A stretch of 64,000 nucleotides of DNA. It comes from Candidatus Phycocordibacter aenigmaticus (GTDB taxonomy: Bacteria; Patescibacteriota; Minisyncoccia; Phycocordibacterales; Phycocordibacteraceae). Shown here piece by piece: positions 20,361 to 63,840 of this stretch (positions within the stretch are counted from its first letter, which is position 1; every line of letters starts with the position of its first letter). The DNA lies in NCBI GenBank assembly GCA_045401115.1, contig CP174359.1:122288-186287 (forward strand), read 5' to 3'. A program made the translations under genes and the position numbers. The notes beneath the pieces are model-generated. The model was not told where the DNA came from. It ran no database searches and saw nothing but the letters and a program-made list of their open reading frames with translations.

Positions 20361-20362
20361 AA

Positions 20363-39905: not shown

Positions 39906-40697
39906 CTACTCCGCTCTAGTTCCACAAAAGGCATACTCACGTTCTGTTCCGGACACCCATTCAACGACCCTGCCATCAAATAAATTGTTTCTACCATCCG
40001 CCCCGAAACACGTCCCTCTCCGTACATTTCTAATAGTGTCTATAACAGAACCATCAGACTCTGATGTAATTCTACAGTCACGTTGCTGCCAGGTAAAATA
40101 TCGTTTCCCTGAGCTTCGGCATACCCTTCTTAACTCTTGTTTTTCGCGATCACTTATTTCAGTCATTTCAAGTATAGTACCTTCGAACTCATTAAATTCA
40201 CTGTCGCTATATAGAGAGCGTTCGTAAATATCTCCCTTACCTTCAACAAAATCGTGCAGACGGTCTGCGCGCGCCCTACGCTCCGCTTCGGTTTCCACCG
40301 CAGCATCTTCCTCGGCCTGACTTGATGCAAGAGATTGGAAATTAAGTGCAGATAGATTGAGTATCTGAGGGTTAATAGTATTAAGTATCAACCAACTTCC
40401 TCCAAGAAGAATGAGTCCAAGTACCGCATTCTGAATAGTAAGGCGTGCCTCTCCTTTTGCAGTCACCGCCTCAGTGGTCATGTATTGAAAACCGCCCATA
40501 ATCACCCGAAGCACTGCCAGCATAGCGGCAAAAGTGATGATGATATTAAAAACAGCGTTGACGTAGTCACTTAACGACCCTTCACCTCCTTCATACCCAA
40601 CTCCAGGGAGAGTAACAAGTGGCTCAAAATCGCCCGCAGCTGCAAAAAGAGCTGTGGGTATCAGTAAAAGTAAGGATGCAAGAGCGAAGGCGCGCAT
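39906..40697 (-). CDS. Secreted protein with a pilin-like (TrbC/VirB2-type) N-terminus: signal peptide plus two hydrophobic helices, and a Cys-containing C-terminal domain
   Basis: MRAFALASLLLLIPTALFAAAGDFEP... then NAVFNIIITFAAMLAVLRVIMGGF and AVLGLILLGGSWLILNTI. Confidence 0.4.
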   Translation of the reverse strand: MRAFALASLLLLIPTALFAAAGDFEPLVTLPGVGYEGGEGSLSDYVNAVFNIIITFAAMLAVLRVIMGGFQYMTTEAVTAKGEARLTIQNAVLGLILLGGSWLILNTINPQILNLSALNFQSLASSQAEEDAAVETEAERRARADRLHDFVEGKGDIYERSLYSDSEFNEFEGTILEMTEISDREKQELRRVCRSSGKRYFTWQQRDCRITSESDGSVIDTIRNVRRGTCFGADGRNNLFDGRVVEWVSGTEREYAFCGTRAE

Positions 40698-47671: not shown

Positions 47672-48772
47672 CTACTTGTTCATTGGCATTACAAGGTAAG
47701 TAAACCCCTTATCAGGAACCTCACTAATAATAAGCGGCTTCCCAACTCCGGAGAATTTAAACACCAAACTATCAGTCACCACTGTACTTAATGCATCAAG
47801 AATATACCGTATATTAAAATTAACTTGGATAGGTTCACCTTCAAGTGCAGCATCAACAGACTCTCTACTTTCACCAACTTGTGTATTAACACCATTTACT
47901 GAAAGCAGTTTACTTGAAGGGTCTAAGTTAAACGCCACCTGCCCCGCCTGGTCGGTTACCACAGCAACCTTTTTTAAAGCCCGTTGCAGGTCTTCAGTAA
48001 GTAATGTCGCTGTGGTGGTGAAATCTTTTGGGATAATTGCAGTGTACTCAGGAAAAGCACCGTCGATCACCCGTGATGTTATAAAATTCCCATCACTCAT
48101 ATAGGTAACCTGGTTTTCACCAACACGAACCTCAACAGTATCAGTCCTCTCAATAACCCGTAAAATATCCGGTATATTACGGGCCGGAAGAAGGATCGAA
48201 TCAATATTATTCTTCACTTTTATATCAGCTTTTATTTCAGATAGACGAAAAGAGTCTGTTGCGGCGGTTATCAACATCCCATCTTGGACTGTAAGAAAAA
48301 CACTCGCTAACTCAGGACGCATACCTGAGGTTGCTGCCGCAAAAACAACACCCTTAAGGGAACGAGAAAATTCCTTCACAGGAAGTGTCAAAGATACCCC
48401 CTCTCCTTCTTTTACACAGGGTAAGGTGGGGAAATCACTCACATCAATAGTGTTTAGTTTTACCTCACCGTGACCAGTAATAATTTTTAATATCCCCTCA
48501 TCACTTTCGAGGGTTATTTTTTCATCCGAAATAGCATTAACTGCCTGACTAAATACATGCGCCGGGACAGCGACATCCCCTTCTTTAACAACCTTTGACT
48601 TTAGAGCAATTTCAACACTCACATCAAGATTGGTTGCTCTTAGTGTTGTTTTATTTTGTGTTGCCGATATAACCACACACCCCAATACTGGTAATGATAA
48701 ATTTTTATTACTCACTCGAGAAACTATTTGAGTTGCGTCTTCTAAATGTTTTTTTAATAATTCTAATTTCAT
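47672..48772 (-). CDS. dnaN: DNA polymerase III beta sliding clamp
   Basis: 366 aa; three-domain clamp pattern. Confidence 0.9.
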   Translation of the reverse strand: MKLELLKKHLEDATQIVSRVSNKNLSLPVLGCVVISATQNKTTLRATNLDVSVEIALKSKVVKEGDVAVPAHVFSQAVNAISDEKITLESDEGILKIITGHGEVKLNTIDVSDFPTLPCVKEGEGVSLTLPVKEFSRSLKGVVFAAATSGMRPELASVFLTVQDGMLITAATDSFRLSEIKADIKVKNNIDSILLPARNIPDILRVIERTDTVEVRVGENQVTYMSDGNFITSRVIDGAFPEYTAIIPKDFTTTATLLTEDLQRALKKVAVVTDQAGQVAFNLDPSSKLLSVNGVNTQVGESRESVDAALEGEPIQVNFNIRYILDALSTVVTDSLVFKFSGVGKPLIISEVPDKGFTYLVMPMNK

Positions 48773-48979: not shown

Positions 48980-50327
48980 TTATTTCAACATGCTACGCAC
49001 TTCTCCAATTTCATTTTTGAAATCTTCGTTACCACTAAGGTCTGTTTTTATTTTTTCACAGGCATGAATAACAGTAGTGTGGTCGCGCCCACCAAAGACA
49101 GAACCAATTGCAGGGTATGAGAGATGAAAATCTTCTCGAAGTATGTACATAATTATTTGCCGAGGGCGAACTATTTCGCGTTTTCGTGTTTTTGCATACA
49201 TAGATGCCTCTTCAACACCATAAAACTCAGCAACTTTTCCTATAATGTTTTTCACAGAAACAGAGCGCTTTGGTTTAGTGGTTGATTTAATAACATCTTT
49301 TATGGCGGTATCATTTAACTCACTATTGAGTTGAGTTTGTATAAGGATGGTGTTGAGCATCCCTTCAATCTCTCTAATATTACCGGTAATTGCCAAAGAA
49401 AGGTGTTCAATAATTTCGTCGCTTAAATTAAGGCCAATTGAGTTTGCTTTGGTTTTAATAATAGCCATACGTGACTCATGGTCGGGTTCTTGTATTGCAA
49501 CAGTCATGCCAGAGACAAAACGTGACTGGAGGCGGTCAGTAAGATCAGGAATAAGATTAGGGTGTTCGATCTGATGAACACACAATTTGTTTGTTACAGT
49601 CATGTAGTGTGTTGAAGAGATGGAAAAACTCTTCCTGAAGCGTCCCTTTTTTCGAGAAAAACTGTATATCATCCATAATTAATACATCATAGGCACGATA
49701 CTTCTCTTTAAAAGTGGGGATGGTGCGATTATTAATCGCATTCATAAATTCAAAACCAAACCGTTCTGCGGTAAGGTAGTACACTTTTTTTTGAGCGACT
49801 GTTTTTTTAATATGATTCCCCACACTTTGTATTAAGTGTGTTTTTCCACGCCCTGTTTCTCCATAAATAAAGAGTGGGTTATATGAAATGCCTGGGTTTT
49901 TTGCTACTGCACTTGCCCCAGCGAATGCAATTTCATTAAATGGACCAACCACAAAAGTATCAAATGTATATCGCGGGTTAAGGTTATCTGATCGATTAAC
50001 ATAATAATCAGCTAACGGGAGTTCAGAACCACTCTTTTCTTCAGTAGGAACTTTTTCAGGCACTCGTTTCGGTTCTTGTTTTGAAACAACATATTCAATA
50101 CCGCGCACTGTATCTACAAACCCTCTGATGGTTTTTAAAATAAGCTTTCCGAAACGCTCGGAAAGCCATTCTTTAGTAAGTTGATTCGGTACACCAACGT
50201 ATACCACTCCCCCTTCTATACGGATAATATGTGTTTCGCCAAACCACATTTTAAAACTTGCTGGGGAAATTGAGAGTTCAATGTTGGTCAAAGTGTTTTC
50301 CCAAAGCTGTTTTGTATCAAGTTCCAT
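48980..50327 (-). CDS. dnaA: Chromosomal replication initiator DnaA, interrupted by an apparent +1 frameshift at a CCC run near 49557-49560 (ORFs 49557..50327 and 48980..49672 overlap)
   Basis: N-terminal ORF has GETGRGKTHL and MDDIQFF...KQIVCSSDRTP*; the other frame continues PNLIPDLTDRLQSRF...and the C-terminal DNA-binding domain. Removing one C restores canonical SDRTP-NLIPDLT-DRLQSRF spacing. Confidence 0.85.
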
Positions 50328-50546
50328 AATAAAACGTAGAGTGAATGAGTTTCCCTATTATACCTGTGTGGAAAAGAAAATAAACATGAGGAAAAACCAA
50401 GTATATGTTAGTAACCTGTGTACAACCTGTGCACAACCTAATTTCAGTAAAAAATAGTAGAATACAGCTTTGACAATTCCACCTCACATGGTAATATCGC
50501 GCATACGTACTCTCATTAGAGACAGAGACGATATAATACATATTGT
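50328..50546. promoter_or_regulatory. Probable oriC / dnaA-rpmH divergent control region with DnaA-box-like motifs
   Basis: TGTGGAAAA (50366-50374), TGTGTACAA and TGTGCACAA (~50424-50448) resembling TGTGGATAA; an AT-rich stretch; flanked by dnaA and rpmH. Confidence 0.6.
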
Positions 50547-50684
50547 ATGCCAAAGAGAACCTATCAACCTAAAAAAAGAAAACGTGCTAAAACTCACGGT
50601 TTTTTATCTCGCTCAAAAACTCCTTCAGGCCGTCGCGTACTTGCTCGTAGGCGTCAAAAAGGTCGCGCAAAGCTCGCTGTATAG
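50547..50684 (+). CDS. rpmH: Ribosomal protein L34
   Basis: [45 protein letters not shown] (45 aa; below the ORF-track length cutoff). Confidence 0.9.
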
Positions 50685-50693
50685 TCAGACACT

Positions 50694-51014
50694 ATGTTGT
50701 CTAAAAAGGCGCGACTTTCTCGAGATGATTTCCCTAAAAAGCGCGCAACAAAGCGGTACCCTCTCTCGTGGGGTGCTGTTTTAGTTTACCCACACAATCA
50801 TTTTAAGGCAGCAGTAGTGGTTTCAAAAAAAACACTTAAAAAAGCGCACGAAAGGAATAGGCTCAAACGTCGTGTTTATGCAGCTCTCGAGTCTTTATCA
50901 ACAGAAGTACTACTGGTAAAAGTGGTAGTACTTCCCCGCTCAGAGGCGCTTACTGTACCTTTAGGTGCACTAAAAACTGACCTTGAACACGTGTTAGGCA
51001 AAGAAATGCACTAA
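50694..51014 (+). CDS. rnpA: RNase P protein component
   Basis: 106 aa; basic; position after rpmH. Confidence 0.8.
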   Translation: MLSKKARLSRDDFPKKRATKRYPLSWGAVLVYPHNHFKAAVVVSKKTLKKAHERNRLKRRVYAALESLSTEVLLVKVVVLPRSEALTVPLGALKTDLEHVLGKEMH

Positions 51015-51057
51015 AAACATTTTAGTTATCGTATTTCTGGGTTAGAATGCACTCAAT

Positions 51058-51798
51058 ATGATTGGACTTTTTGACACATTTATTTACGAGCCTATTTACA
51101 ATGCGCTCGCGTTCATTATTAACATTACCCCGGGTGCAGATATTGGAATCGCGATCATTGTCCTTACGTTAATTATTAAATTCATTCTTTTTCCGCTCTC
51201 GCTTAAGGCAGTCCGCACTCAAGCAGCAATGCGTGAAATTGATCCCGAGTTAAAAAAAATCAAAGAAGAGTTTAAAGAGAACAGAGAAGAGCAGGCGCGG
51301 CGGACCATGGCGCTTCTTAAGGACAAAAAAATCAACCCGTTTGCGAGTTTCCTCCTCATTCTGATACAGCTCCCTGTCATTATTGGACTCTATTTTGTCT
51401 TTTTAGGTAATGGTGGCGGCATAGGTTTTGACCCAGCTGTCCTTTACTCTTTTATTTCTGTTCCAGAGAATGTGTCCTTTAACTTTCTTGGGATTATTGA
51501 CCTTTCAGGGCGCAGTATTGCCCTTGCTGCACTTGTAGCGGCGACACAGTTTGTGAACGCACGCCTTATGATGCCGAACGCTCCAGACGCCGAAGCAGGT
51601 ACCCTTAAGGGTGACTTAGCAAAGAGTATGCATATGCAGATGCGTTGGGTGTTCCCTATTGTTATGGGAGTGGTGGCGTATGTTATTTCAGCAGCCATTG
51701 CACTATACTTTCTTATATCGAACCTCTTCCAACTTTTCCAAGAACTCTACGTAAAACATAATCAAAGCACTGATGCCAATGGAGAAAGTCAACATTAA
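51058..51798 (+). CDS. yidC: Membrane protein insertase YidC (short form)
   Basis: 246 aa; multi-TM; conserved position after rnpA. Confidence 0.8.
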   Translation: MIGLFDTFIYEPIYNALAFIINITPGADIGIAIIVLTLIIKFILFPLSLKAVRTQAAMREIDPELKKIKEEFKENREEQARRTMALLKDKKINPFASFLLILIQLPVIIGLYFVFLGNGGGIGFDPAVLYSFISVPENVSFNFLGIIDLSGRSIALAALVAATQFVNARLMMPNAPDAEAGTLKGDLAKSMHMQMRWVFPIVMGVVAYVISAAIALYFLISNLFQLFQELYVKHNQSTDANGESQH

Positions 51799-52237
51799 AG
51801 AATATATAACCACTCTTGTTCAAAAACTTGGAGCGACCGTCGCTGAAGTAGATGTTTTTGAGGATGCGCGCGGCACAGTGGTTAATCTTACTGTTACTGA
51901 TAATGCACATGCACTCATTGGTCCTCATAAAGAAACACTACGCGCCCTCAATCATATTGTTCGGCGTGTTACTGAAGGGCAGTCTGAGGATGAGGTACCT
52001 ATACGAGTGGATATCAATAACCATGAAACCAACCACCTTCGTTTTTTGGAGAACCAAGCACAACAGCTTGCCGAGAGGGTCGTAACCTTAAAACAAGAGG
52101 TTGAAATGACGCCAATGAACCCATACGACCGCATGATCGTACATGAAACCATACGTGACATAGAAGGAGTAAGCACTCAGTCTGTCGGCGAGGGGCGACT
52201 CCGTCATGTTGTTATCCAACCGGATACAGATCAATAG
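51773..52237 (+). CDS. jag: Jag/KhpB-like RNA-binding protein (KH + R3H domains)
   Basis: 154 aa; R3H-like NPYDRMIVHETI. Confidence 0.7.
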   Translation: MPMEKVNIKEYITTLVQKLGATVAEVDVFEDARGTVVNLTVTDNAHALIGPHKETLRALNHIVRRVTEGQSEDEVPIRVDINNHETNHLRFLENQAQQLAERVVTLKQEVEMTPMNPYDRMIVHETIRDIEGVSTQSVGEGRLRHVVIQPDTDQ

Positions 52238-52241
52238 TATA

Positions 52242-53225
52242 TTAAAAATTTAGTCGGAAACTCGTTTCTGCCTGTTCAAATATTTGTTGCAGGTTTTTTA
52301 ATTCAAATGAAATAGGCGCACTTCCTCCTCCGTCTCCTGAGCGGCGAAGCGTGAGCTCCCGTTCAGTGCGCCCGGTATTTTTAGTTACCTCGCCATTAAC
52401 ACGCCATTCGTATTCAGGTGTAGTAATATCTTGCACAAACAAAGGAAAAGCCTGGAAGGTCACTTCGTCTTCATTTAGATTTTTTATATTTGTAATAGCG
52501 CGGTCAAATCGAAGCCCAAGAAGCGGCATATATTCATATACGACTATCTCCGGACGAACAGGGGTCACTGTGACGGTATGAGTTGCTTGTTGAACACCGT
52601 CCGGACTCTGAACAGTCACTGATACGTCAAAATTATTCTCAAATTGCGGTGAATCGATTGAGATTGAGTGTACCCCTACCCCAGTGCGTACTGGGCGTGG
52701 AGACCCGTTTATAAACCAACTATATATAAGATTGTCTGGATTTAGGCGACTCCCATTTTGTATAAAGTAAGGGATCGCTGAAAGTATCGTCCTACTGCTC
52801 CCAGTGGGTAGTGGACGCCCTTCATAAAAAGGAGGAGTATAGGTATCTCCTTCCCATTCAATAGAAACTAATGCTGGACGAAGACGGAGCTGTTTTTCTG
52901 CCACCGGCGCACCATCTTGTGAAAGTGTAAGGTTTATTGTCGTTACTGACCCACTTTCACCCAACTGAACTTGAATAGCATCACGTCCAACTCCTTGGTC
53001 AACAATACTGCCGTTGACGCGCCATATAAAAAGAGCGCTTCCAAGTGTGGACGATATATTTTGCGCTCGCACTGTTATCACAGACCCCGGTTCTGGGTTT
53101 CTAGGAATCGTTTCCAAACTTAACCCGGTCTCTAAATTGGGAACAAAAACCGCATATACTAAAAGGGGTGCCATGAAAATGGTTACAGCAAGTGTGGCAA
53201 GGAGTAAGCGCATGGTTGATTTCAT
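52242..53225 (-). CDS. Hypothetical secreted beta-rich protein, last gene of the T4SS-like cluster
   Basis: 327 aa; signal/TM MRLLLATLAVTIFMAPLLVYAV. Confidence 0.45.
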   Translation of the reverse strand: MKSTMRLLLATLAVTIFMAPLLVYAVFVPNLETGLSLETIPRNPEPGSVITVRAQNISSTLGSALFIWRVNGSIVDQGVGRDAIQVQLGESGSVTTINLTLSQDGAPVAEKQLRLRPALVSIEWEGDTYTPPFYEGRPLPTGSSRTILSAIPYFIQNGSRLNPDNLIYSWFINGSPRPVRTGVGVHSISIDSPQFENNFDVSVTVQSPDGVQQATHTVTVTPVRPEIVVYEYMPLLGLRFDRAITNIKNLNEDEVTFQAFPLFVQDITTPEYEWRVNGEVTKNTGRTERELTLRRSGDGGGSAPISFELKNLQQIFEQAETSFRLNF

Positions 53226-53279
53226 ACCTCTGTACCCATTATAGAGGCAAAACTGCTCCTCGGGCAGCAGGTGTGGGGA

Positions 53280-55088
53280 CTATTCTTCATTATCTTTATT
53301 TCTTCGTCCAATAGCCAAGAGTTGTGACGGGTCTGATGTGATTATTTGATCTTCAGTGTATGATGCAATGATTTTAATCGCTACATGTTTTAGGCCCGCA
53401 AAGAATATCCCCTCACCTACAGTGGACTCAAGTAGTAAGTATTTTTCTTCTTCAGTGAGGTTAAAGGTTTTTTGTACTGCATCAATAGATGACGGTGATT
53501 GTTTAAGAAGAAGCTGGATAGATGAGTTGGTAATCATTGGCATACCATAGGGTGAGCGGAGGAAGTCTTCTACGTCTTGGGTAATAGTAGCGAGCCCTAA
53601 GTAGTATTTACGTCCTCGTTTTGCCATAGAGTAAAGGAAAGAGGCGGTATCTTCTGACTTCATCATCCACCACGCCTCGTCGATCACCAGGAGACGTTTA
53701 CGCAACTCTTTACGTACTGCATTCCAGATATAGTGCATCACGATATACATAGCAACAGGTTTGAGCTCATCCTCCATGTCACGTACCGAGAACGCCACAA
53801 ACTTTTTATTAATGTCCACGTTAGTAGGGCGGTTGATGAACCCTGACCAGGTGCCTTTTGTATATTTTGAGAGGCGTTGCACTAACGACTCTGACCCTTC
53901 CATACCCGCAAGCACGAGTTCAAAATCAGAGAGTAGTGGCGGCTCCATACCAGTGAAATCTGCGTCACCAGTAATATCTTTCAATGCATAGGTTTCAGTA
54001 ATGGCGCGGTCAATAATCGCGTCTTCTTCAGGTGAAAGTCCACCAAGCATGATACGAAAGAGTCCCACCAATGTCACAATGTTTGACCGCAGTACGTCTG
54101 CCGGCGCTTCATCTTCTCGAGGAGCTGGAAGATCAAAAGGGTTAATATGATTCTCTGAAGAGAGTGAAATATCAAAGAAACGCCCACCCACTGCATTCGC
54201 GAGGTACTCGTACTCACTTTCCGGATCAATCACCAGCACCTCGGTGTCGAACATGAGGGAACGCAGGATCTCAAGTTTAGTGGCATAACTTTTACCAGAA
54301 CCTGATTTTGCGAACGTTACCGAGTTATAGTTTTCAAGTGAGAAGCGGTCAAATAAAATAAGTGATGCGTTATGACGGTTAATACCATAGAGAATGCCGC
54401 GGTCTGAAGTGAGGTCAAATGAAATGAATGGAAAAAGACTGGAAAGTGGTGAAGAATTGAGTTTTGAGTGTACTCTCAGCTCATCTTTCCCGGTAGGAAT
54501 AACACTTTTGAATCCTTGTTCTTGCTGGAAGAGCGCCGGCTTTACATACACGAGCTTAGCGTCAAGAATTGAGCGTATTTCTGACTCAGTTTTATCAAGA
54601 TCCTCCGAATTATTACCATAGATGGTTATATACACTCCCACATCAAAAATACGCTCCTGCGCCTGCTGTAGCTTGTCACGCAACGCCTCAATGTCGCGGT
54701 AGGCAGTGTCAAGCACCGGATCGCGCACCAACCCTTTCTCTTCCCTACTCATTACCTGGCTTTGAATTTCTGCTACTTTCTTTTGAAATTTACGCAGTAC
54801 TGCCGCGGTATCAATAGGGTGTACGTAAATTGATACATCGAACACCTTATCAAGGTTAATAATAGGAGAGAACCAACTCTCAGAGAGAAAACGCGGGTAT
54901 GAGATTACATAGAATGTACGCGCGAGTTTATCACCTAAGTTCATCTCACGCGGCGTTATCTTGAGCGCACTTGGCGCGATGATGTCGGCAAAATCCAGCT
55001 TTGCAGCTTCATAAATATCTTTTGGTAAAAACGGCGTAATATCGTCATCACCTTTCTTTTTCCCCGGCAAAAAATCAAAAATTCCCAT
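53280..55088 (-). CDS. virB4: VirB4/TraC/TrbE-family type IV secretion ATPase, C-terminal ATPase part (602 aa). In frame with the upstream 224-aa ORF and separated from it by a single TAA.
   Basis: Walker A AKSGSGKSYATK; Walker B LLVIDEAWWMM; overall VirB4 pattern. 55095 and 55088 ends share the same reading frame. Confidence 0.8.
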   Translation of the reverse strand: MGIFDFLPGKKKGDDDITPFLPKDIYEAAKLDFADIIAPSALKITPREMNLGDKLARTFYVISYPRFLSESWFSPIINLDKVFDVSIYVHPIDTAAVLRKFQKKVAEIQSQVMSREEKGLVRDPVLDTAYRDIEALRDKLQQAQERIFDVGVYITIYGNNSEDLDKTESEIRSILDAKLVYVKPALFQQEQGFKSVIPTGKDELRVHSKLNSSPLSSLFPFISFDLTSDRGILYGINRHNASLILFDRFSLENYNSVTFAKSGSGKSYATKLEILRSLMFDTEVLVIDPESEYEYLANAVGGRFFDISLSSENHINPFDLPAPREDEAPADVLRSNIVTLVGLFRIMLGGLSPEEDAIIDRAITETYALKDITGDADFTGMEPPLLSDFELVLAGMEGSESLVQRLSKYTKGTWSGFINRPTNVDINKKFVAFSVRDMEDELKPVAMYIVMHYIWNAVRKELRKRLLVIDEAWWMMKSEDTASFLYSMAKRGRKYYLGLATITQDVEDFLRSPYGMPMITNSSIQLLLKQSPSSIDAVQKTFNLTEEEKYLLLESTVGEGIFFAGLKHVAIKIIASYTEDQIITSDPSQLLAIGRRNKDNEE

Positions 55089-55094
55089 ATATGC

Positions 55095-55769
55095 TTATTG
55101 ATTGTTAAGTGAAATCGGCTTTTCCAGTTCCCCTGGGTTGAATTCCTTATATAAAAGTTCTATCACCTCCTCGGTGCCCAGTGGCGCTAGACGTACCCCT
55201 GTACGCGCCAACCCTTGTTCAACAACCGACATGCGTTGCTCAAGTTGGGTACGGTACTCTTCAAAACCTACATCTTTCTCCTCAGCAGAAAGTTTACTAT
55301 TACCAAAAAAGGTACTCGCAATATTTTTCTTTACGTCCAAAATAGGTGGATTATACGGAATTACAATAAAGAATCGCTTCTCCATGATATTTACCCGTTC
55401 AGTGATAGAGCGAATAAACTCAATATATTCACGTACTTGAATCTTCATCAACTCTTCTGTTTGTTCGCGTAGACGCTCTTCAAGGAGTGCGATATACGGC
55501 CGTATGTCGAGCCGGCGTGATTGCACAAAAAGTTGTACTGAGAAATCAAGCGAATTGAGGAAGTTTTGGAATTGAGACAGAATCGCCATTTGTTCATCTT
55601 GGCTCTTTAAAGCAAAGTTAAGGCTCGATGCCAGCATAACCCCCACCAAGGTGTCATCCTTCAGTACCATTAAGCCACCGCGCACCTCTTTAATAGGTAC
55701 AAAGTCTTGAGCGGCTTTTGTTTTTTTTGTATTCTGCGCCACAGCTTTTATTGTAACGTATAAAAACAC
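55095..55769 (-). CDS. VirB4 N-terminal domain-like protein (224 aa), in frame with the downstream VirB4 ATPase ORF
   Basis: N-terminal VirB4-like region; the two ORFs together give ~828 aa, the usual VirB4 length. Confidence 0.55.
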   Translation of the reverse strand: MFLYVTIKAVAQNTKKTKAAQDFVPIKEVRGGLMVLKDDTLVGVMLASSLNFALKSQDEQMAILSQFQNFLNSLDFSVQLFVQSRRLDIRPYIALLEERLREQTEELMKIQVREYIEFIRSITERVNIMEKRFFIVIPYNPPILDVKKNIASTFFGNSKLSAEEKDVGFEEYRTQLEQRMSVVEQGLARTGVRLAPLGTEEVIELLYKEFNPGELEKPISLNNQ

Positions 55770-55879
55770 ACCGACGGTGTTTTTTACGATACGTAATCAC
55801 AGTATGTCTGTATTGGTATTAAAACACCGACAGCCTTGCATGACTATCGGTGTACTCATCAACCTCTTTTTTATAGAAT

Positions 55880-56263
55880 CTAAACCTTTCCTCCTTGGGT
55901 GGCTTGCTGTTTGGCGTTATTGTATACACCCTGTATTCCCTTGTACACTGCCCACGCTAAGAAAAGCTCAAACATGCCGGCACGTATTAATTCTCCAACA
56001 TCACCTGAGCTCACCTGTACAGTGTCATAAGAAAAAAAAGACGCATCCTCCCCTTCAATATCAGCTCCATTTTTTAAATGCTCAATCCGTCCTGGATCGT
56101 TTTCTGGGTCATAGGTGTTACGCAGTCTATGGTCATCAAAAGTGCCATCAAACGCGTCTGCAGCAACAGGTCCAATAGCCATGGGGTAAAAAATAGCTCC
56201 AATCATGGTCCCTCCCATTATTGATTGGTTGAAAGTTAGATTTTTACTTTTCTCTGCTCCCAT
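55880..56263 (-). CDS. Hypothetical small protein with a C-terminal hydrophobic helix
   Basis: 127-aa ORF upstream of virB4 on the same strand. Confidence 0.35.
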   Translation of the reverse strand: MGAEKSKNLTFNQSIMGGTMIGAIFYPMAIGPVAADAFDGTFDDHRLRNTYDPENDPGRIEHLKNGADIEGEDASFFSYDTVQVSSGDVGELIRAGMFELFLAWAVYKGIQGVYNNAKQQATQGGKV

Positions 56264-56359
56264 AATGAATATAATATACTACATTTTGTATATATTGTCA
56301 ATACTCTCTCGAATAGGAATTATTGACATTAACATATATTACTGTATTATCACAAAAGT

Positions 56360-56746
56360 ATGAGATTAGGACGATTACGTTTTTTTGCTCCCCTTTCTAA
56401 CTCGGTTATTGAAGGAGTTAGTAAGAGCGCTGCCCCTGGTGGAATACTTAATAAGGGTGGACAAAAACTACGAGAAGCTGCTCCTTCAATTAAGAATTCA
56501 GGAGACTTACTCGGTCTCACTGTAGGTGGTGCAGCACTGTTAGCTTTATCAAACAAAGACTCACGAGAATTCCTATTTGATTCTAGTGAAGGTGCATACG
56601 ATTTTTTTACTGGAAGCCGAGAAGGGTTTGTGGAAGCGGCTGGTACCACTGAATTATGGACCACCCCTGAGATGGGTGTGATTTATGCGTTTATTGCAAT
56701 AGCTATAGCAGATCGTCTTGGTTTCCAACCTCTAAAGAAAGTTTAA
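56360..56746 (+). CDS. Hypothetical small protein (one TM near the C-terminus), divergent from the T4SS-like cluster
   Basis: 128-aa ORF; the AT-rich divergent promoter region 56264-56359 has TTGACA/TGTCAA palindromic elements. Confidence 0.35.
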   Translation: MRLGRLRFFAPLSNSVIEGVSKSAAPGGILNKGGQKLREAAPSIKNSGDLLGLTVGGAALLALSNKDSREFLFDSSEGAYDFFTGSREGFVEAAGTTELWTTPEMGVIYAFIAIAIADRLGFQPLKKV

Positions 56747-56750
56747 ACTA

Positions 56751-57182
56751 CTAGCGTTGCGATTCATCGGAATAAATACTTTCTTTAATATCTAGGCTCC
56801 ACGCCAAATCCTTGAGTTTATTTGATGTAGCTGCTGGGGCGTATTTCCCTGGATCGTCTTCTTTTTTTAGATCCCCCTGATTTACAATTTTTGGTTTTGT
56901 CGCACGTTCTTTATCCCAAATATATAACTGATCTTTGGTATTAAATTCTACCGCCGCTTGAAGTACCTCAATAAACGGTCGGTCGTTTACCTTATAAAAT
57001 GCGAGCGCCAGACCAAGTATTGCTATTGGCCCTCCTACAAGGATAGCGAGCCACAGTGGCAGTACTATCCACATAGCTACCAAGAAACCAACTCCTCCGG
57101 CAAGGTAGACAAACTGCGTCACCGTGAGCGGTCCGAATATCTTATCTTCTACTTCAATAAACTGTGGTACTTGAAAACGCAT
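56751..57182 (-). CDS. PrgI/VirB3-like small membrane protein (2 TM)
   Basis: MRFQVPQFIEVEDKIFGPLTVTQFVYLAGGVGFLVAMWIVLPLWLAILVGGPIAILGLALAFY. Confidence 0.5.
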   Translation of the reverse strand: MRFQVPQFIEVEDKIFGPLTVTQFVYLAGGVGFLVAMWIVLPLWLAILVGGPIAILGLALAFYKVNDRPFIEVLQAAVEFNTKDQLYIWDKERATKPKIVNQGDLKKEDDPGKYAPAATSNKLKDLAWSLDIKESIYSDESQR

Positions 57183-57226
57183 ATATGTAGGCTATTTCTT
57201 TAGCATACCATTGTGGTATGCGAGTT

Positions 57227-58483
57227 CTATATCCCTTCCCCATTCTCAAGGTCACTCTCGGTTTTTGTGTCATCAGTCGGCTCGTATAATCTGAGGGACC
57301 ACAAAGTTAAATCGTTTTTATTAAGAAACGTTACATAATTTCCATCGTAACTTACCTGCGGACGCCAAACATCAATTTGGGCGTCAACTTCGTCTGACGG
57401 TAGGGCAAGCAACATGCTGACACCATCTGAGATAGTAAATAGCCATAGGTCATCTTCAAAAACCGTTTGTCCTAAAAGCCAATGAACCGTCGCATTGCTA
57501 GAGAGTGTTTCTCGAGGAACTCCACAGGCGAGGTGTTCCTCGTTAGGAGTAAATGCGCATTTTGATGCAATAGTATTAAGCGGTGTTAGGAAGATTTGTT
57601 CTTCTTGGGTGTCGTACACTGAAAGAGACGTGTCGCGTTCTCCGCCACTCATTACTATATATCGTCCACTCGGACTTACCTGTGCTGTTAAGCTTTCTAC
57701 TCCACCGACAATATGAGTGAGATTGCTGTTAGTAATTTGGTACACTGCACCCGCAATTCCTGAGGCAGGGGCGGTGTGTACATACAAAGCGGCATCACTT
57801 TGTAGTGGTATCCATGAACGAATACGAGAAGAAAAGATAGTGCGTTCATTTTCTCCATTCACGTCAGAAAGTGTTATAACACTTCCATCTTCTGTTTCGT
57901 ATACTGCGAGTAGATTTTCTCCTGCTTGATCTATACTTGCGCGTTGCCACTGTGACATAAATGAACCACCGAAAGCGTTTTCCTCGTTCTCTTCGGAGTT
58001 AATAGTAGTGTAGAAGTTTTCTGTATCACCGTCTTCGTTAAAATAACGAATAATAAAATTATTTTCATCTATCCAAGTTACATCATGTATCTCAGGCACA
58101 GTCGTATTTGAGATACGTGTCGCAGTGCGACCTTCAGCAGGCACATCGTATATGTGCCCGGTAGCACGGTCAATATATCGAATAATAGGTTCTTCTTCTG
58201 CATTCTCATATATAAATGCACCCACTGTCGGTTGGTTGCTCACTTGACGAAGCTGTGGCACAGGTCGTGTGTCTTCTGTTTTTGGTACATCTGCACCACC
58301 ACCTGTACCTCCTGAGGGGGTAGTATCTCCTGAGCCAAATGGAAAGAGGCCGCTAAAGAAACCTCCTGAATCTTCCCCGTTTGAATCGAAGGTATTTCTT
58401 GATGAATCTAAATAAAACGCGATAAACGCAGCACCTAACACGAGAACGAGCGCTATAAAAAATAAAATAATAGTCCGTCGCAT
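57227..58483 (-). CDS. Membrane-anchored secreted protein with a predicted beta-propeller-like ectodomain
   Basis: 418 aa; N-terminal TM IILFFIALVLVLGAAFIAFYL, then G/S-rich linker. Confidence 0.45.
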   Translation of the reverse strand: MRRTIILFFIALVLVLGAAFIAFYLDSSRNTFDSNGEDSGGFFSGLFPFGSGDTTPSGGTGGGADVPKTEDTRPVPQLRQVSNQPTVGAFIYENAEEEPIIRYIDRATGHIYDVPAEGRTATRISNTTVPEIHDVTWIDENNFIIRYFNEDGDTENFYTTINSEENEENAFGGSFMSQWQRASIDQAGENLLAVYETEDGSVITLSDVNGENERTIFSSRIRSWIPLQSDAALYVHTAPASGIAGAVYQITNSNLTHIVGGVESLTAQVSPSGRYIVMSGGERDTSLSVYDTQEEQIFLTPLNTIASKCAFTPNEEHLACGVPRETLSSNATVHWLLGQTVFEDDLWLFTISDGVSMLLALPSDEVDAQIDVWRPQVSYDGNYVTFLNKNDLTLWSLRLYEPTDDTKTESDLENGEGI

Positions 58484-58552
58484 ACGTATAGATATTGTAC
58501 CAGGTTTATCCCCTCTCGTTGTTAATACAAACGGAGTTTTGTATTAAATCAA

Positions 58553-59122
58553 CTACTCAATTGGTTCGCGGTACGGGTCAACGGTTTTGTACTGCGTTTT
58601 AGGTTGTGGTGATCCATCTTCTTCACTGAATGCATCCACTTCTACCTCTTCTAGTTTTTCGCGTCGTGAAGTGCCGAGGGTTGGTTCTGTGAAAGTAGAT
58701 ATTTTTTCATCGGCAACTTTCGGCTGTGCTGGTGTATTGTCTTGAGACGGTTCAAGAGGTTGTGCCGGCACTGGCTTTTCTTGTTTTTTCTCTTCAAGTT
58801 GTTTCCTCTTTTCATCAAGATACACCCGGAACGGCTTAAACAGCATGTTATTAACATCATTCAATACCACACTGTAGAGAGCGCTATTTTGCTCAAGTGC
58901 TTCTTGAAGCATCTCTGAAAATCGTGCGGTGGGTACTAGACCTAAGAACACTGCTTCGACAGCGTTGGCAATATTCCCTAGCTCATCAAAATGGAGATTG
59001 TGTTTTGTGCGGAATGCACTAAATGCGTCAATATACTCCTCCGAGTTCATGTACTGCTGAACTAGGGGCGATGTTTTCGAATACGCTTCTTTTATTTGTT
59101 GTGCCGTGGGAATAAGTGCCAT
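58553..59122 (-). CDS. Hypothetical protein
   Basis: 189-aa ORF within the T4SS-like cluster. Confidence 0.4.
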   Translation of the reverse strand: MALIPTAQQIKEAYSKTSPLVQQYMNSEEYIDAFSAFRTKHNLHFDELGNIANAVEAVFLGLVPTARFSEMLQEALEQNSALYSVVLNDVNNMLFKPFRVYLDEKRKQLEEKKQEKPVPAQPLEPSQDNTPAQPKVADEKISTFTEPTLGTSRREKLEEVEVDAFSEEDGSPQPKTQYKTVDPYREPIE

Positions 59123-59139
59123 AGTGCTATATGTTTGTA

Positions 59140-61491
59140 TTAATTTTCATCATCTGGTCCTCGGTCAATGTTTTCCTGGTTTGGTGGTGTATTTGGTGGC
59201 TGAGGTGACGGTTGAGGATCTGTGCGGGTAGTACCCATATCCGCGAGTTCTTCTTGAGCTACAGGTGCTTTGCGTCCACGCTCCACAGCTTGTGTAGATT
59301 CGTTATATTTCTTCACGACCTTAGTTTGAGCGCGCATACTGATATTTTGCATCTGCGCTTCAGAAATTTCTCCCTCGCGTGGTTCTTTTCCTGGTTCAGC
59401 TTGGCGACGGTTTATTGCAGAAAATTCTTCTACATTAAGTAGTTGCGCCATTTCAGGTTGTTCAAGCACCTCAGGTGGGAGCGCTGCAACTTGACTGGTA
59501 CCATCTGGACCATTGGTACGCAGTTTATCTACCAACATCTTTGCAGAACGTCTATCCTGGGCAAGAGCCATAAGATCTCTTTTTTCTTCTGCTCGTTCAG
59601 CTAGTTTTTCTTGTGTAAATTCAACACGATCACGTTGCTTCTCAGTTAACCGACCACGTACCGCTTCTTGGGTCAGTCCTTCAATTGCGGTGACCACTTT
59701 CTGTAGCTGTTGCGTTTGTGTAGCATCAAGTTGTTGTGAATCTTCTGTTGGTGTACCCGAAGCTCCGGTTTTCGTTGGTGGTCTTTGGTTTTGAGTATCT
59801 ACGCGGCGCTTTGCACGCTCAACCTCAGATGGATTTTTAGAAGCACCAACCACTTGTGCAAGCGCTTTACGCTTACCTGTTTTTGTAACTTCTGCTTTTT
59901 TCTCTTCCTGAGTAAGCTCTTCATTTTTACGTTCTTTTTCTCGTTGATCTTCAGAAAGGTTTGAAAAGGCATCAACAGCATGATTATAGGCTGCTTGTTT
60001 TTCTTCTTCAGGAGCGTCATCTTGGCTGAGTACCGCTGCATATTTTGTTCGAGCCTGATCCCACTCATCTTTTTTAGCTTTTTCGTACTCTTTGTCTTGA
60101 CGTCCAGTGCGTGAGAAGGACACTGGGCCCAATTCATCACGAAGTGGTTTAAGGGTAAGCGCGTCCCCAAGGTTTCTTTTCCCTCCGGTAAGCGCCAGAG
60201 GAGTACCCCCCACCCATTTAGCTGCTCCTCCAAGAGTTTTTCCGACTGCCTGAGCAGCGGTTGGTATCACTTTTTTATATGCGCCATAGAACTGACCAGT
60301 GGTTGGTGGTGTGAACTCTTCTTGTCGTGCAATTCCCATTGAAATTTTCATAGCAAAATAAAGAAGGCCAAAACCAAGCGCGTATATTACTACCAGATCA
60401 AGCGCAGCTGACCATCGAGTGCCGCCAGCTGCTGAAATAAATGTTGGATTTGCAATTAGGTCTACCAATGTTCCGTCTCCAAGGGCTACCGCTGAAGCAT
60501 TTTCCAGTACTTTAAGTGCAGCTGCGGCAAACAAGAGAAATACCACAGGGAATACTGCTTGACTGTACAGCGCTGACCACCACGCCTTCCCAAACTTTTG
60601 TATACCAGGAATATCAATGAACGCGAGTATCCCTATAGGAGATGTCATAAGGAGAATTACTATCACAATAAAGCGCTGTATAAAAAGCGCTGCCATTGAA
60701 AAAAATATAAAAAATGTTGCTCCCATGAACACCACTCCGATAAGTCCCATCATGAAAAGCATAGCCCCATCCATTTTACTTAAGTCTTCATCAAGTTCGT
60801 AGATTGATGCAAGTTTTGTGGCATTCATAAATCGCGTCGTTATTGCGCGACCTCCTTGGAGAGCACTTGTGACTTCGTTATCGCCAACACGCTCTTCTGA
60901 GTCAATATCGATAACCAAGGCTTCTTGGTAAATCATACGTGACGTAAAATGTGAGGCGTCTAGTATGGCGCCGGTAAAGAAATAGCTAAAATTCACCAAA
61001 AGAGCAGCAATAATAATAGTCACAATTATCCGCCCTACTTTTTGTGCAGAGCCAAGAATGATATTAATTGATGCCCAAATTAACCCACCAATAAAAACGA
61101 GATTCACAAGATCGCGCAGCACAATCCAAATTGCGCTTATAGAAGATCCAATACCTCCACCTACCGCAAGTCTTTCCGAAGCTTGTATAAGCCATCGGGT
61201 AATTGTCCAATCAAAAAATCCCGCACCAATGCCAAGAAAAACACCGCCCATTTGAAGCATCATGCCGGCGATTCCGGCACTATTGTTACATTGCCCTCCT
61301 CCAACAAGCGGTATATTTCCAACCGCACACGTGAGAAGTGCGGTGAGTATAATTAATATAAAAATACCCACCGTTCCAGCGGCGATGAGCAACAAAATAA
61401 TTGATTTACCTCCTCCTTTTATTGCACCCCACATATTGTTATTGTGACACAGTTTCTTCCTCTTCGGGATCGCAATAGGTTGCTGGGTCAC
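59140..61491 (-). CDS. VirB6/TrbL-like polytopic membrane protein with a long charged coiled-coil C-terminal region
   Basis: 783 aa; ≥8 TM helices in the N-terminal 420 aa, then a K/E/Q-rich tail. Confidence 0.55.
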   Translation of the reverse strand: MTQQPIAIPKRKKLCHNNNMWGAIKGGGKSIILLLIAAGTVGIFILIILTALLTCAVGNIPLVGGGQCNNSAGIAGMMLQMGGVFLGIGAGFFDWTITRWLIQASERLAVGGGIGSSISAIWIVLRDLVNLVFIGGLIWASINIILGSAQKVGRIIVTIIIAALLVNFSYFFTGAILDASHFTSRMIYQEALVIDIDSEERVGDNEVTSALQGGRAITTRFMNATKLASIYELDEDLSKMDGAMLFMMGLIGVVFMGATFFIFFSMAALFIQRFIVIVILLMTSPIGILAFIDIPGIQKFGKAWWSALYSQAVFPVVFLLFAAAALKVLENASAVALGDGTLVDLIANPTFISAAGGTRWSAALDLVVIYALGFGLLYFAMKISMGIARQEEFTPPTTGQFYGAYKKVIPTAAQAVGKTLGGAAKWVGGTPLALTGGKRNLGDALTLKPLRDELGPVSFSRTGRQDKEYEKAKKDEWDQARTKYAAVLSQDDAPEEEKQAAYNHAVDAFSNLSEDQREKERKNEELTQEEKKAEVTKTGKRKALAQVVGASKNPSEVERAKRRVDTQNQRPPTKTGASGTPTEDSQQLDATQTQQLQKVVTAIEGLTQEAVRGRLTEKQRDRVEFTQEKLAERAEEKRDLMALAQDRRSAKMLVDKLRTNGPDGTSQVAALPPEVLEQPEMAQLLNVEEFSAINRRQAEPGKEPREGEISEAQMQNISMRAQTKVVKKYNESTQAVERGRKAPVAQEELADMGTTRTDPQPSPQPPNTPPNQENIDRGPDDEN

Positions 61492-62908
61492 TTATGATGG
61501 TGAGGAGTGTGTCATATTCCTCATCTACTACCGCAATGTCAGTGTCCGTATGAGTAATCCCGGTATCAATAAGTGCACTGAAGTTCGTGGATATGTTACT
61601 TGCTTCATCTATGGTGCGTGCCTGTTCTATTTCGCTACGCAATAGTTGTAAGTCTCTCGTGTTTGATGAAGCGACTGCAAGATTACTTTCGTAATACGGA
61701 ATAAGTCCATCAGCGTTTTCAATGCCGCGACGGGTATTTTGTACGCGGTACGTTTCGTAGTAACAAGTTCGCACTTCTTCATCGGCCTCTTCAAGTGCAG
61801 TAATAATGTTATTCACCGCATTTCGGTACCGCTCTTCAGTAGAAAGACTGTCACGTGCTTGGATACGTGCACTTTCCCGGATACGTTCAGTAAGAGCGTT
61901 ATCAGATTCATTAGTGAGCGCCTCAACATACGAGCCTTGAATCAGACGGTTTTCATTATCAACATATGTACGCGCCGATGAACCCGAACGACTTGAAAGG
62001 CCACGCAACCCACTAAGGCTAGTAAGTGCTTCTTGAGCGAGTTGTGCGATCAGTGCATTAACGATTTCATTAATCTCATCGGCAAGTTCAAGTGATTCGA
62101 AACCTGACCCAAGCACTTCCCCTAGCTGTTGGTTGATCTGTGTACCAGGTGTGACAATTTCATGTACCAAACATTCAGGCTCCTCACCTTCTTTAACAGG
62201 CTCCTCACTATATTTTATACATTCGCGTTTTGAGAAAAACCCTTCACCGAAATTAAGGTAGGCAAGTTCTTCATCTTGTCGCGCATTAATCCGTGCTTCG
62301 AGTTCTCCTAGAGATTGTCCATATGCACCATATGGGTTGTTTTGGCTTTCTGCATGAAGCCGAAACCATGTTTCCCAGCCGCCTTGACTAAAATCATTGA
62401 AAAACCCGTCGATATTATCGGCAACATCACCAAGCGAGCAGCGAATACGCTCACGGAACGGTTGCCGTTGTAACGCAAGACTAAGACGAATTTCTAATTC
62501 AAATGGACTACAAATAAACCCAAGGTCGGTGCCTTCAATGAAATCAAGCGCTGTGTGATCAGCCACCTCCCCTAAGAATTGATTTAGGTTACTTACAAAC
62601 GATGGTCCCCCTTCAAACCCACTATTTATCCAGTCGATAATACTCTGCGTCATCGCTGCGATCATCGCTTCCTTTAAGGCAAACGTCACTGCGTCTAGGA
62701 CTGTCTCCTTTGTGGTTAGTGTGGCAGTGACTCCAGCGGTAGTAGCGCTTGATGCTGCAGTTGCTGCTATGAATCCAGCAGAAGGCCCCACTAATACTAC
62801 TGGTAACGCGGCAGCATGTGACGTATTAATCGGTAAAACGAATGATGAAAAAGATGTCGCCAGAAGAAGGGCTACGGCTACGATTTTTTTTGAAAAAGAT
62901 GACTTCAT
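61439..62908 (-). CDS. Secreted hypothetical protein (489 aa), possible pilus/adhesin-associated component
   Basis: Signal peptide MKSSFSKKIVAVALLLATSFSSFVLP; A/T/S-rich then acidic regions. Confidence 0.45.
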   Translation of the reverse strand: MKSSFSKKIVAVALLLATSFSSFVLPINTSHAAALPVVLVGPSAGFIAATAASSATTAGVTATLTTKETVLDAVTFALKEAMIAAMTQSIIDWINSGFEGGPSFVSNLNQFLGEVADHTALDFIEGTDLGFICSPFELEIRLSLALQRQPFRERIRCSLGDVADNIDGFFNDFSQGGWETWFRLHAESQNNPYGAYGQSLGELEARINARQDEELAYLNFGEGFFSKRECIKYSEEPVKEGEEPECLVHEIVTPGTQINQQLGEVLGSGFESLELADEINEIVNALIAQLAQEALTSLSGLRGLSSRSGSSARTYVDNENRLIQGSYVEALTNESDNALTERIRESARIQARDSLSTEERYRNAVNNIITALEEADEEVRTCYYETYRVQNTRRGIENADGLIPYYESNLAVASSNTRDLQLLRSEIEQARTIDEASNISTNFSALIDTGITHTDTDIAVVDEEYDTLLTIISDPATYCDPEEEETVSQ

Positions 62909-63840
62909 GATGATGTGGTTATAGTAGTAAATATTTGGTGTGCTTCAGCAAAACGATCTTCGGCAGCAATAAATGCATCAAGTGCAAGTAGTGTTCGGTA
63001 CGGATCTTCGTAGTGCGTGCTCATAAGCGTAATTGCATATGTAGCGGCGCTAATGGAATTAATCATTTCAAGATGAGTTCCAGAGACTGTAGTAGGAGTA
63101 GGAATTGCGAGGAGATCATTAATAATCTCAGCATAGAGCGCAATATTGGTTGTAAACTGTCGAAGGTGTATTAAGTCGCCTGTGTCGAGTAGTTTATAAA
63201 GGGTCACTGTTTCATGTTCAGGCACCGCCTCTGCTTTAGTTAATACTTTTTGTACTTCACTCGCGTATGTTGCTATTGCATCGCCGCTTTCATTATTATT
63301 CACCTGTATATCCTCAAAAGTATATTGCGGCGGTTCGATGTCCAACACATTTCGCTCTACAACTGATTCAATAGCTGTCTGCAACTCTGCTTCGCTTAGT
63401 TCCCCGTTTTCTTTAAAAGAAAGGTACGCGGCAAAAAGTTCTTTCCCGAGTGCTTCAATTGGTTCGGTCCCCTCTGGCGCAACATATGGCTTTTCACTTA
63501 TTGGTTCAGTGCCATGTACGGCCGGGTCAGAACCCTGCGCTACTTCGTCTCCATCCGAGACACCATCCCCGTCCGAGTCAACATTGTTAGGGTCGGTGCC
63601 GAGAAGCACCTCTTTCCAGTTAGGGATACCGTCTCCGTCTGAGTCTGCGCGCGCGGTGATGCTGGTACCTTGTTGGTTGATCGTTAATACTTCGTTGTTT
63701 TCATTCTGCCTTATCTCATCCGTGGCTTGAGGAGCGGCAGTAAAAAAGGCAAGCGCTATCACGCCAATGGCAACTACACCAAACAGCACGAGCATTCCGA
63801 AATTCTTCCGGTTTTTCATAGTACCAGTATACCTGCACAC
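62905..63840 (-). CDS. Membrane-anchored protein with thrombospondin-type-3-like Ca-binding repeats
   Basis: 311 aa; TM MLVLFGVVAIGVIALAFF; DSDGDGIPN ... DSDGDGVSDGDE repeats. Confidence 0.45.
   Translation of the reverse strand: MCRYTGTMKNRKNFGMLVLFGVVAIGVIALAFFTAAPQATDEIRQNENNEVLTINQQGTSITARADSDGDGIPNWKEVLLGTDPNNVDSDGDGVSDGDEVAQGSDPAVHGTEPISEKPYVAPEGTEPIEALGKELFAAYLSFKENGELSEAELQTAIESVVERNVLDIEPPQYTFEDIQVNNNESGDAIATYASEVQKVLTKAEAVPEHETVTLYKLLDTGDLIHLRQFTTNIALYAEIINDLLAIPTPTTVSGTHLEMINSISAATYAITLMSTHYEDPYRTLLALDAFIAAEDRFAEAHQIFTTITTSS

Follow-up and report, generated by a model that had tools for sequence, protein, structure and literature searches.

Two studies have described chromosomal type IV secretion systems (T4SSs) in the Patescibacteria. 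Wang et al. 2023 (Cell, PMC10633639) found that the Southlakia T4SS encoded by SEML1_0006-0019, together with its pilin array, is essential for epibiotic growth, and a 2025 review (PMC12857230) presents it as the first T4SS known to be indispensable to its bearer, regardless of comEC competence. A survey of 3,035 Patescibacteria genomes by Quinonero-Coronel et al. 2025 (Microb Genom, PMC12102498) reports VirB4 in 2,417/3,035 of them, as a clade nested in MPF-FATA. In the same survey, genes for TrsD, PrgI/VirB3, VirB6 and VirB2-like pilins lie near virB4; VirD4-like genes occur in most genomes, mostly far from virB4; and relaxases are found in only 103/3,035. The Paceibacteria cluster sits close to dnaA, dnaN, rnpA, rpmH and ksgA, a position that the authors interpret as a gene-dosage effect. 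Here we describe the corresponding cluster of Candidatus Phycocordibacter aenigmaticus, from the class Paceibacteria, in a window of 64,000 nucleotides (positions 122,288 to 186,287 of contig CP174359.1, assembly GCA_045401115.1) whose numbering is used throughout.

The cluster occupies positions 52242-63819 and is almost certainly a Patescibacteria-type chromosomal T4SS of a lineage nested in monoderm MPF-FATA, as judged from family matches and gene content. Such a cluster is biologically important and is borne beside the replication genes by nearly all ultra-small Patescibacteria. The system was already described in 2023 and 2025, and the window is a rediscovery of it. In common with the Patescibacteria clade as described in the survey (PMC12102498), it has an MPF-FATA-type VirB4, a separate TrsD-like gene, PrgI/VirB3 and VirB6 (recognized via orthologues), a VirB2-like pilin in the genome, no relaxase in the window, and a position beside dnaA, dnaN, rnpA, rpmH and ksgA. 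It differs in that the pilin gene lies 12 kb away, one accessory gene (G) is displaced and a 980-bp insert is present. A sequence-only reading of the window, made without database searches, had proposed a minimal, non-conjugative T4SS-like surface apparatus of ultra-small episymbionts; the Paceibacteria affiliation of the organism, the conserved core locus, the lack of a relaxase or coupling protein in the window and the published Patescibacteria T4SSs support that proposal. Its gene coordinates and common strand also hold, on the minus strand, with two corrections. Ten rather than eleven genes are co-directional, because 56350-56664 (-) is better read as an opposite-strand open reading frame (ORF), 56360-56746, and the first gene likely starts at 63819 instead of 63840, a 304-amino-acid (aa) form being present on an independent contig. 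Transcription on the minus strand runs in the order K, J, VirB6-like, H, G, PrgI, insert, VirB4N, VirB4C, A, and the features are as follows.

62905-63819, minus strand: K, with an N-terminal transmembrane (TM) anchor, TSP3_bac repeats and a helical C-terminal domain; the conserved block starts with this gene
61439-62908, minus strand: J, secreted, mostly helical, assigned to no family; directly upstream of the VirB6-like gene
59140-61434, minus strand: VirB6-like protein, with a polytopic N-terminal half and a charged C-terminal tail of ~400 aa
58553-59122, minus strand: H, without a TM segment; a conserved N-terminal domain of ~100 aa, a Pro-rich linker and a C-terminal DPYREP motif
57227-58483, minus strand: G, a TM anchor followed by a TolB-like (PD40) beta-propeller; here between H and PrgI
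56751-57182, minus strand: PrgI family protein, the VirB3 equivalent (PF12666, 1e-9; named 'PrgI family protein' in GenBank)
55770-56750: lineage-specific insert of ~980 bp between PrgI and VirB4N
56360-56746, plus strand: ORF128, a lineage-specific hypothetical within the insert (GenBank ACJKTH_00945)
55880-56263, minus strand: D127, a lineage-specific hypothetical within the insert, outside the conserved T4SS set
55095-55769, minus strand: VirB4N, the TrsD-like N part of VirB4 as a separate gene (NF041427 TrsD, 4.6e-7)
53280-55088, minus strand: VirB4C, the P-loop C part and signature T4SS motor (NF045971 conju_CD1110, 1.1e-111; PF19044, 1.6e-24)
52242-53225, minus strand: A, an N-terminal TM helix, then three tandem Ig-like beta-sandwich domains
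39906-40697, minus strand: VirB2-like pilin, 12 kb from the cluster and beside ruvB (named 'pilin' in GenBank)

Measured against its orthologues, each of the nine conserved genes is full length, and an Rfam scan detected no RNA family within the cluster. The T4SS of Southlakia epibionticum ML1 (PMC10633639) shares the order VirB6-like ... PrgI, TrsD-like, VirB4, has PF18895 pilins, and likewise contains no recognizable relaxase or coupling protein within its cluster; its low locus-tag numbers (SEML1_0006-0019) suggest that it also lies near the chromosome start. Southlakia also has pilin genes arrayed in tandem, an NTF2-like (VirB8-like) protein and, beside virB4, peptidase/lysozyme genes, all of them absent from the window cluster, and essentiality is a result for Southlakia, which belongs to the Saccharimonadia. 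The monoderm MPF-FATA systems (pGO1/pSK41 Trs with TrsD and TrsE, CTn2 with CD1110, pCF10 Prg/Pcf) have the same VirB4 family, PrgI and a VirB6-type protein, and the survey notes the TrsD and VirB4 split in the pGO1 subclass of Gram-positive conjugation systems (PMC12102498). Unlike these systems, the window cluster lacks a type IV coupling protein (T4CP), relaxase, oriT, VirB1-like hydrolase and VirB8-like protein and is not on a mobile element, whereas the window has a VirB2-like pilin, which Gram-positive systems lack.

The assignment draws on the two parts of VirB4, both named as such by the earlier reading, and on PrgI and the VirB6-like protein. VirB4C exceeds the cutoff of the conju_CD1110 model with 374 bits, matches the Pfam family P-loop_TraG, and retains intact Walker A (GSGKS) and Walker B (VIDEAW) motifs in translation. 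VirB4N matches TrsD/TraD and also aligns with the N-terminus of the CD1110 and Mbov_0397 VirB4 models. The two genes are 6 nt apart, VirB4N upstream, separated in frame by a TAA and two codons. We considered this TAA as a nonsense mutation or recoding signal and rejected both. VirB4N is a separate gene adjoining VirB4C in every locus that holds upstream DNA, with a spacing of 1-16 nt in 61 related loci. The split is no lesion, because close homologues of the C part are all ~600 aa long and the gene pair occurs in all three relative reading frames across species. PrgI contains a single long hydrophobic stretch (residues 19-49) with two overlapping high-hydropathy windows, long enough for the two adjacent TM helices proposed before. 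The VirB6-like protein is polytopic with a charged tail, as described previously, and places ~7-8 hydrophobic segments between residues 12 and 362, within its first ~365 aa. Among its orthologues, 8/39 match PF04610 TrbL/VirB6, with a best E-value of 6.5e-7.

Conservation of the locus was assessed by scanning species-representative genomes with VirB4C, which returned at least 592 relatives, and comparing the best 80 loci; the loci were chosen by VirB4 similarity, which inflates VirB4 identity somewhat. VirB4C is 77-89% identical in these best 80 relatives, among which are Kaiser-, Nomura-, Taylor-, Campbell-, Wolfe- and Adlerbacteria, and 77-93% identical to Patescibacteria homologues of ~600 aa in more than 590 species. 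Clustering of ORF families gives a canonical order of uvrD, ksgA, K, J, VirB6, H, PrgI, VirB4N, VirB4C, (small polytopic protein), A, pilin, G, followed on the other strand by jag, yidC, rnpA and rpmH, then dnaA and dnaN. Eight core genes are all detectable in 27/43 loci flanked on both sides, and their order is the same in 27/27; dnaA lies 3.6-8.7 kb from VirB4C in 54/56 loci with enough flank. The comparative synteny recommended earlier as a check shows that both block order and proximity to dnaA recur across species. Median identity to the window proteins is 79% for VirB4C, 60% for VirB4N, 47% for PrgI and 26-32% for the accessory proteins, compared with 50-54% for DnaA, 42% for YidC and 37% for DnaN, housekeeping proteins of the same loci. 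Even allowing for the choice of loci, the excess of VirB4C over the latter three is large and points to strong purifying selection, and the same arrangement in dozens of species whose accessory proteins have diverged to about 26-32% argues for vertical inheritance. The comparison indicates a core locus that is passed on vertically under strong constraint, and not a mobile element.

The same data bear on whether the genes are part of an ordinary conjugative element, either an integrative and conjugative element (ICE) or an integrated plasmid, with its relaxase and coupling protein outside the window. The best matches of VirB4C are conjugation-type models (CD1110, Mbov_0397 ICE, TraC), and the window ends only 160 bp past the cluster. 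Set against this, ksgA comes next beyond the cluster, followed in relatives by uvrD; jag, yidC, rnpA, rpmH, dnaA and dnaN flank the opposite end; and the recurrence in dozens of species at such accessory-protein divergence is that of vertical descent. The cluster has no adjoining integrase, the nearest 20 kb or so contain no tRNA gene, and neither the 64-kb window nor the ORF families clustered from the related 20-kb loci yielded a coupling protein or relaxase. The absence of a relaxase or VirD4 candidate from the window, claimed by the earlier reading, thus holds in Pfam and NCBIfam scans and ORF inspection, and, apart from the cluster itself, the window's ORFs that reach about 400 aa are all housekeeping genes or the type IV pilus gene PilB. 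Given also the scarcity of relaxases in the surveyed genomes (PMC12102498), we regard a conjugative element as extremely improbable. No mobile element carrying a relaxase and VirD4 emerged in the window, in keeping with the earlier view that this is not conventional conjugation.

PF18895 pilin genes lie within the cluster in relatives, where the orthologue stands between A and G, and the window holds a homologue. Its own match to PF18895 (E 0.0018) is below the cutoff; it matches the cluster-encoded pilins that do reach PF18895 at 1e-22 to 1e-38 with 44-52% identity, and is 52% identical to the in-cluster pilin of the close relative L082. By analogy with established T4SS biology, we infer that the VirB4 ATPase, formed by the TrsD-like N part and the P-loop C part, would dock on PrgI/VirB3 and the VirB6-like protein in the cytoplasmic membrane. 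This platform would then extract the VirB2-like pilin from the membrane and polymerize it into a surface filament or conduit, while the envelope proteins A, G, K and J may form the wall-spanning and host-contact module. The role of the apparatus would be to interact with a host cell, not to transfer its own DNA. A pilus does not require a coupling protein in the Agrobacterium VirB/D4 system, where VirD4 is dispensable for T-pilus production. A VirB4-driven platform that assembles pilin for host contact is probably the best overall explanation of the locus; for the pilus and contact mechanism in itself, we put the chances at about even.

Several observations weigh against this explanation. The ~980-bp insert interrupts the cluster and G is displaced, and the pilin gene lies outside the cluster in this genome, 12 kb away. 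In Pfam, no family is matched directly by the VirB6-like protein of the window, and the cluster contains neither a VirB1-like hydrolase nor a VirB8-like (NTF2) protein, A being Ig-like in its predicted fold. The Paceibacteria T4SS is known from genes alone and has no known substrate. In addition, VirD4-like genes are present elsewhere in most Patescibacteria genomes according to the survey (PMC12102498), which therefore leaves room for substrate translocation.

Such translocation could be the main activity, the cluster forming a channel that delivers effectors into a host bacterium or extracts host molecules, with a minor role or none for the pilin. Wang et al. model the Southlakia T4SS as 'DNA or protein delivery' (PMC10633639), and effector systems without a T4CP are known, such as Ptl and Brucella VirB (PMC12102498, PMC12857230); the VirD4-like T4CP homologues elsewhere in most genomes (PMC12102498) would fit as well. 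Against a mainly translocating channel stand the lack of any candidate effector or coupling protein in the window and the finding that the Southlakia t4cp homologue is not essential while the pilin array is (PMC12857230, PMC12102498). We consider it unlikely as the primary role, and it overlaps with a host-contact platform rather than excluding one.

A second functional alternative is a DNA-import apparatus like Helicobacter ComB or archaeal Ced, supplying nucleotides or genes. Patescibacteria lack nucleotide synthesis (PMC10633639, PMC12857230), in class ABY1 the T4SS lies beside comF, recG and radA according to the survey (PMC12102498), and VirB4C shows weak partial similarity to the CedB model (E 1.2e-8). 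The scores for CedB (34 bits; model cutoff 700) and CedD (13.6 bits; cutoff 600) are nevertheless far below what would place VirB4C among the Ced/ComB import ATPases, and contrast with the 374 bits obtained for the conjugation-type VirB4 model CD1110. Competence in Southlakia needs type IV pili and comEC; cells survive the deletion of comEC, whereas the T4SS is essential (PMC12857230). The window moreover has type IV pilus genes of its own, PilM and PilB. DNA import is accordingly a poor candidate and clearly less probable than a translocation channel. The host-contact platform remains our preferred explanation.

Five families of accessory proteins accompany the core; K, J, H, A and G are not characterised in the main text of the survey (PMC12102498). 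The sequence-only reading counted six secreted or membrane-anchored proteins of uncharacterised function; A, G, J and K indeed have an N-terminal hydrophobic segment, while H and D127 have none. For A, the AlphaFold2 (AF2) model has a mean predicted local distance difference test (pLDDT) score of 81 and shows a TM helix followed by three beta-sandwich domains. A Foldseek search against the PDB retrieved SiiE, Hoc and GhpA, proteins built of tandem Ig/FnIII/BIg domains, with E-values from 3e-8 to 1e-6, a lead that A may be a surface stalk or adhesin-like component. A was also considered as a VirB8 analogue and rejected, because the predicted fold is Ig-like and not NTF2. The gene is kept after VirB4C in 75/80 loci by tblastn. 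In many species (L008, L011, L014, L066 and others) a small polytopic membrane protein of 115-340 aa is encoded between VirB4C and A; these proteins fall into three unrelated-looking families with no Pfam match and are absent from the window and its closest relatives.

The beta-propeller suspected at 57227-58483 is supported for G, whose orthologue profile matches 12 TolB structures in the PDB (E 8.6e-5 to 6.5e-4), along with weak PD40 and eIF2A propeller matches. K contains the expected thrombospondin-type Ca-binding repeats (PF18884 TSP3_bac, 1.9e-14, in 62905-63819), lies on the upstream side of J in 36 further species according to tblastn, and belongs to an ORF family with members in 51 loci, the window and L001 included. 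In H, the N-terminal domain and the DPYREP motif are conserved in the orthologue alignment; H has no Pfam or PDB match and no hydrophobic segment. The AF2 model of J (mean pLDDT 71) contains a confident helical bundle at residues 300-485, and both Foldseek and profile searches of J against the PDB were negative; the VirB6-like, A and H families likewise gave no significant match when their sequence profiles were run against the PDB. Variable extra domains occur in the orthologues of J, F5/8-type-C lectin domains in 6/43 and surface Ig domains in two. The N-termini of some orthologues match DUF4141 at 24-33 bits, most below the 30-bit cutoff, and the window's own J has no DUF4141 match. The setting resembles that of Bacteroidetes MPF-B conjugative transposons, where a DUF4141 gene stands beside traJ as J stands beside the VirB6-type gene; the DUF4141 match spans ~50 residues including the signal peptide and is a lead, not a family membership. 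As a lead only, J is a candidate surface or tip adhesin and may have a VirB5-like role. No cluster protein matches lysozyme, CHAP, M23 or SLT families in the Pfam and NCBIfam scans.

We tentatively suggest, as a possibility we rate below even chances, that K, J, H, A and G are integral, Paceibacteria-specific T4SS parts that replace VirB8, VirB1 and adhesin functions. A, as an Ig-domain stalk, G, as a TolB-like propeller, and K, through Ca binding, might jointly span the wall, and J might recognize the host or act as a VirB5-like tip, with interchangeable lectin or Ig C-termini that would set host range.

The chromosomal neighbourhood of the cluster is that of the replication initiation genes, listed here from the window.

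47672-48772, minus strand: dnaN
48980-50327, minus strand: dnaA, frameshifted in the assembly and found by tblastn with an intact orthologue
~50532-50684, plus strand: rpmH
50694-52237, plus strand: rnpA, yidC and jag, with the Pfam families of the same genes in the relative L082

The cluster ends 1.9 kb from dnaA, and beyond K lies the end of ksgA. The sequence-only reading placed the cluster immediately adjacent to oriC. The genes dnaA, dnaN, rpmH, rnpA, yidC and jag are indeed nearby, but oriC itself was not demonstrated: DnaA boxes are not enriched (24 found versus 16.8 expected), only two one-mismatch boxes fall in the 29%-GC spacer between dnaN and dnaA, and the GC skew flattens near 48 kb with no sign change within the window. 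The T4SS genes are transcribed towards rpmH-dnaA, an orientation kept in every locus examined (L002-L082), and their transcription would run head-on to a replication fork from an origin at dnaA. In the window, a single extra A (cga-A-cac-cct) near 49563 breaks dnaA into two overlapping ORFs, whereas DnaA is intact, at about 447 aa, in orthologues including that of the relative whose VirB4C is 92% identical. The frameshift is probably an assembly error rather than a mark of a pseudogene, since dnaA is indispensable. Other window neighbours with Pfam assignments are ArgRS, a Mur ligase, PolA, RuvB, PilM and PilB; from their translations, we take three further ORFs to be SHMT, TyrS and a class A penicillin-binding protein. 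A separate surface machine is encoded at 19842-21987 (-) and 37246-38907 (+), with PilM (PF11104, 5e-41) and PilB/GspE (PF00437, 2e-111), and two small ORFs just downstream of PilM are, by position, putative pilN and pilO.

The locus departs from the canonical arrangement in the interval between H and VirB4N. G follows A and the PF18895 pilin gene in every related species, and the window instead has the order H-G-PrgI; L001, an independent contig, shows the H-G adjacency as well. The lineage-specific insert divides the cluster into a K-to-PrgI part and a VirB4N-to-A part. Its two genes are both annotated in GenBank and have codon-usage scores of 0.23 (D127) and 0.20 (ORF128), compared with 0.22-0.23 for confirmed genes and about -0.16 to -0.23 for shadow ORFs. 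The minus-strand frame 56350-56664, the eleventh gene of the earlier reading, scores a near-neutral 0.03 and is absent from the protein collection; it was rejected in favour of the plus-strand ORF128 on codon usage and GenBank annotation. Two sigma-70-like sites with 11/12 matches, at 56323-56350 on the ORF128 side and 56301-56273 on the D127 side, are the best in the 12-kb region and stand back to back in the AT-rich spacer between D127 and ORF128. Among 1.84 billion representative proteins, D127 has a single distant homologue (38% identity, E 3e-17), and the other loci fetched with VirB4C gave no match to it. ORF128 has no homologue in the related locus L082, and its ORF family has no member in any other locus.

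In L082 (7866-9226), whose VirB4C is 92% identical, PrgI is on the opposite strand and a 308-aa orphan gene lies between H and PrgI; because of this inversion and the orphan after H, the H-to-VirB4N interval looks rearrangement-prone in this lineage. Insertions of another kind occur in about a dozen species, where 23S_rRNA_IVP genes (PF05635, 2.8e-40) are found within the T4SS cluster, often exactly between VirB4N and VirB4C or beside PrgI (L007, L008, L009, L013, L014, L018, L024, L043, L069, L074 and others). The ~125-aa genes in other species' clusters had been considered as VirB2 pilins and were rejected as such, being these 23S_rRNA_IVP four-helix-bundle proteins.

These departures could also mean that the cluster is decaying and non-functional in this genome. 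Pilin and G are displaced relative to all other species, the 980-bp insert places two orphan ORFs between PrgI and VirB4N, and a frameshifted dnaA lies nearby. The nine conserved genes are, on the other side, full length with intact Walker motifs, a pilin homologue is retained in the window, and the single extra A in dnaA is more likely an assembly error. Decay is consequently very improbable, even more so than DNA import.

Relative to the sequence-only reading, the analysis adds that the system is published, that a VirB2-like pilin belongs to it, and that VirD4-like genes exist elsewhere in most Patescibacteria genomes. The window does not hold a new kind of system; it is a clean Paceibacteria example, and what remains new is the set of five conserved accessory families together with the local rearrangement. 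A large part of bacterial diversity belongs to the Patescibacteria, whose cells apparently live attached to other microbes, and theirs was the first T4SS for which essentiality to the carrier bacterium was shown. What is gained here is a species-wide picture of the accessory genes that always accompany VirB4, with fold-level hints for A, G and J, and together these could guide work on host contact.

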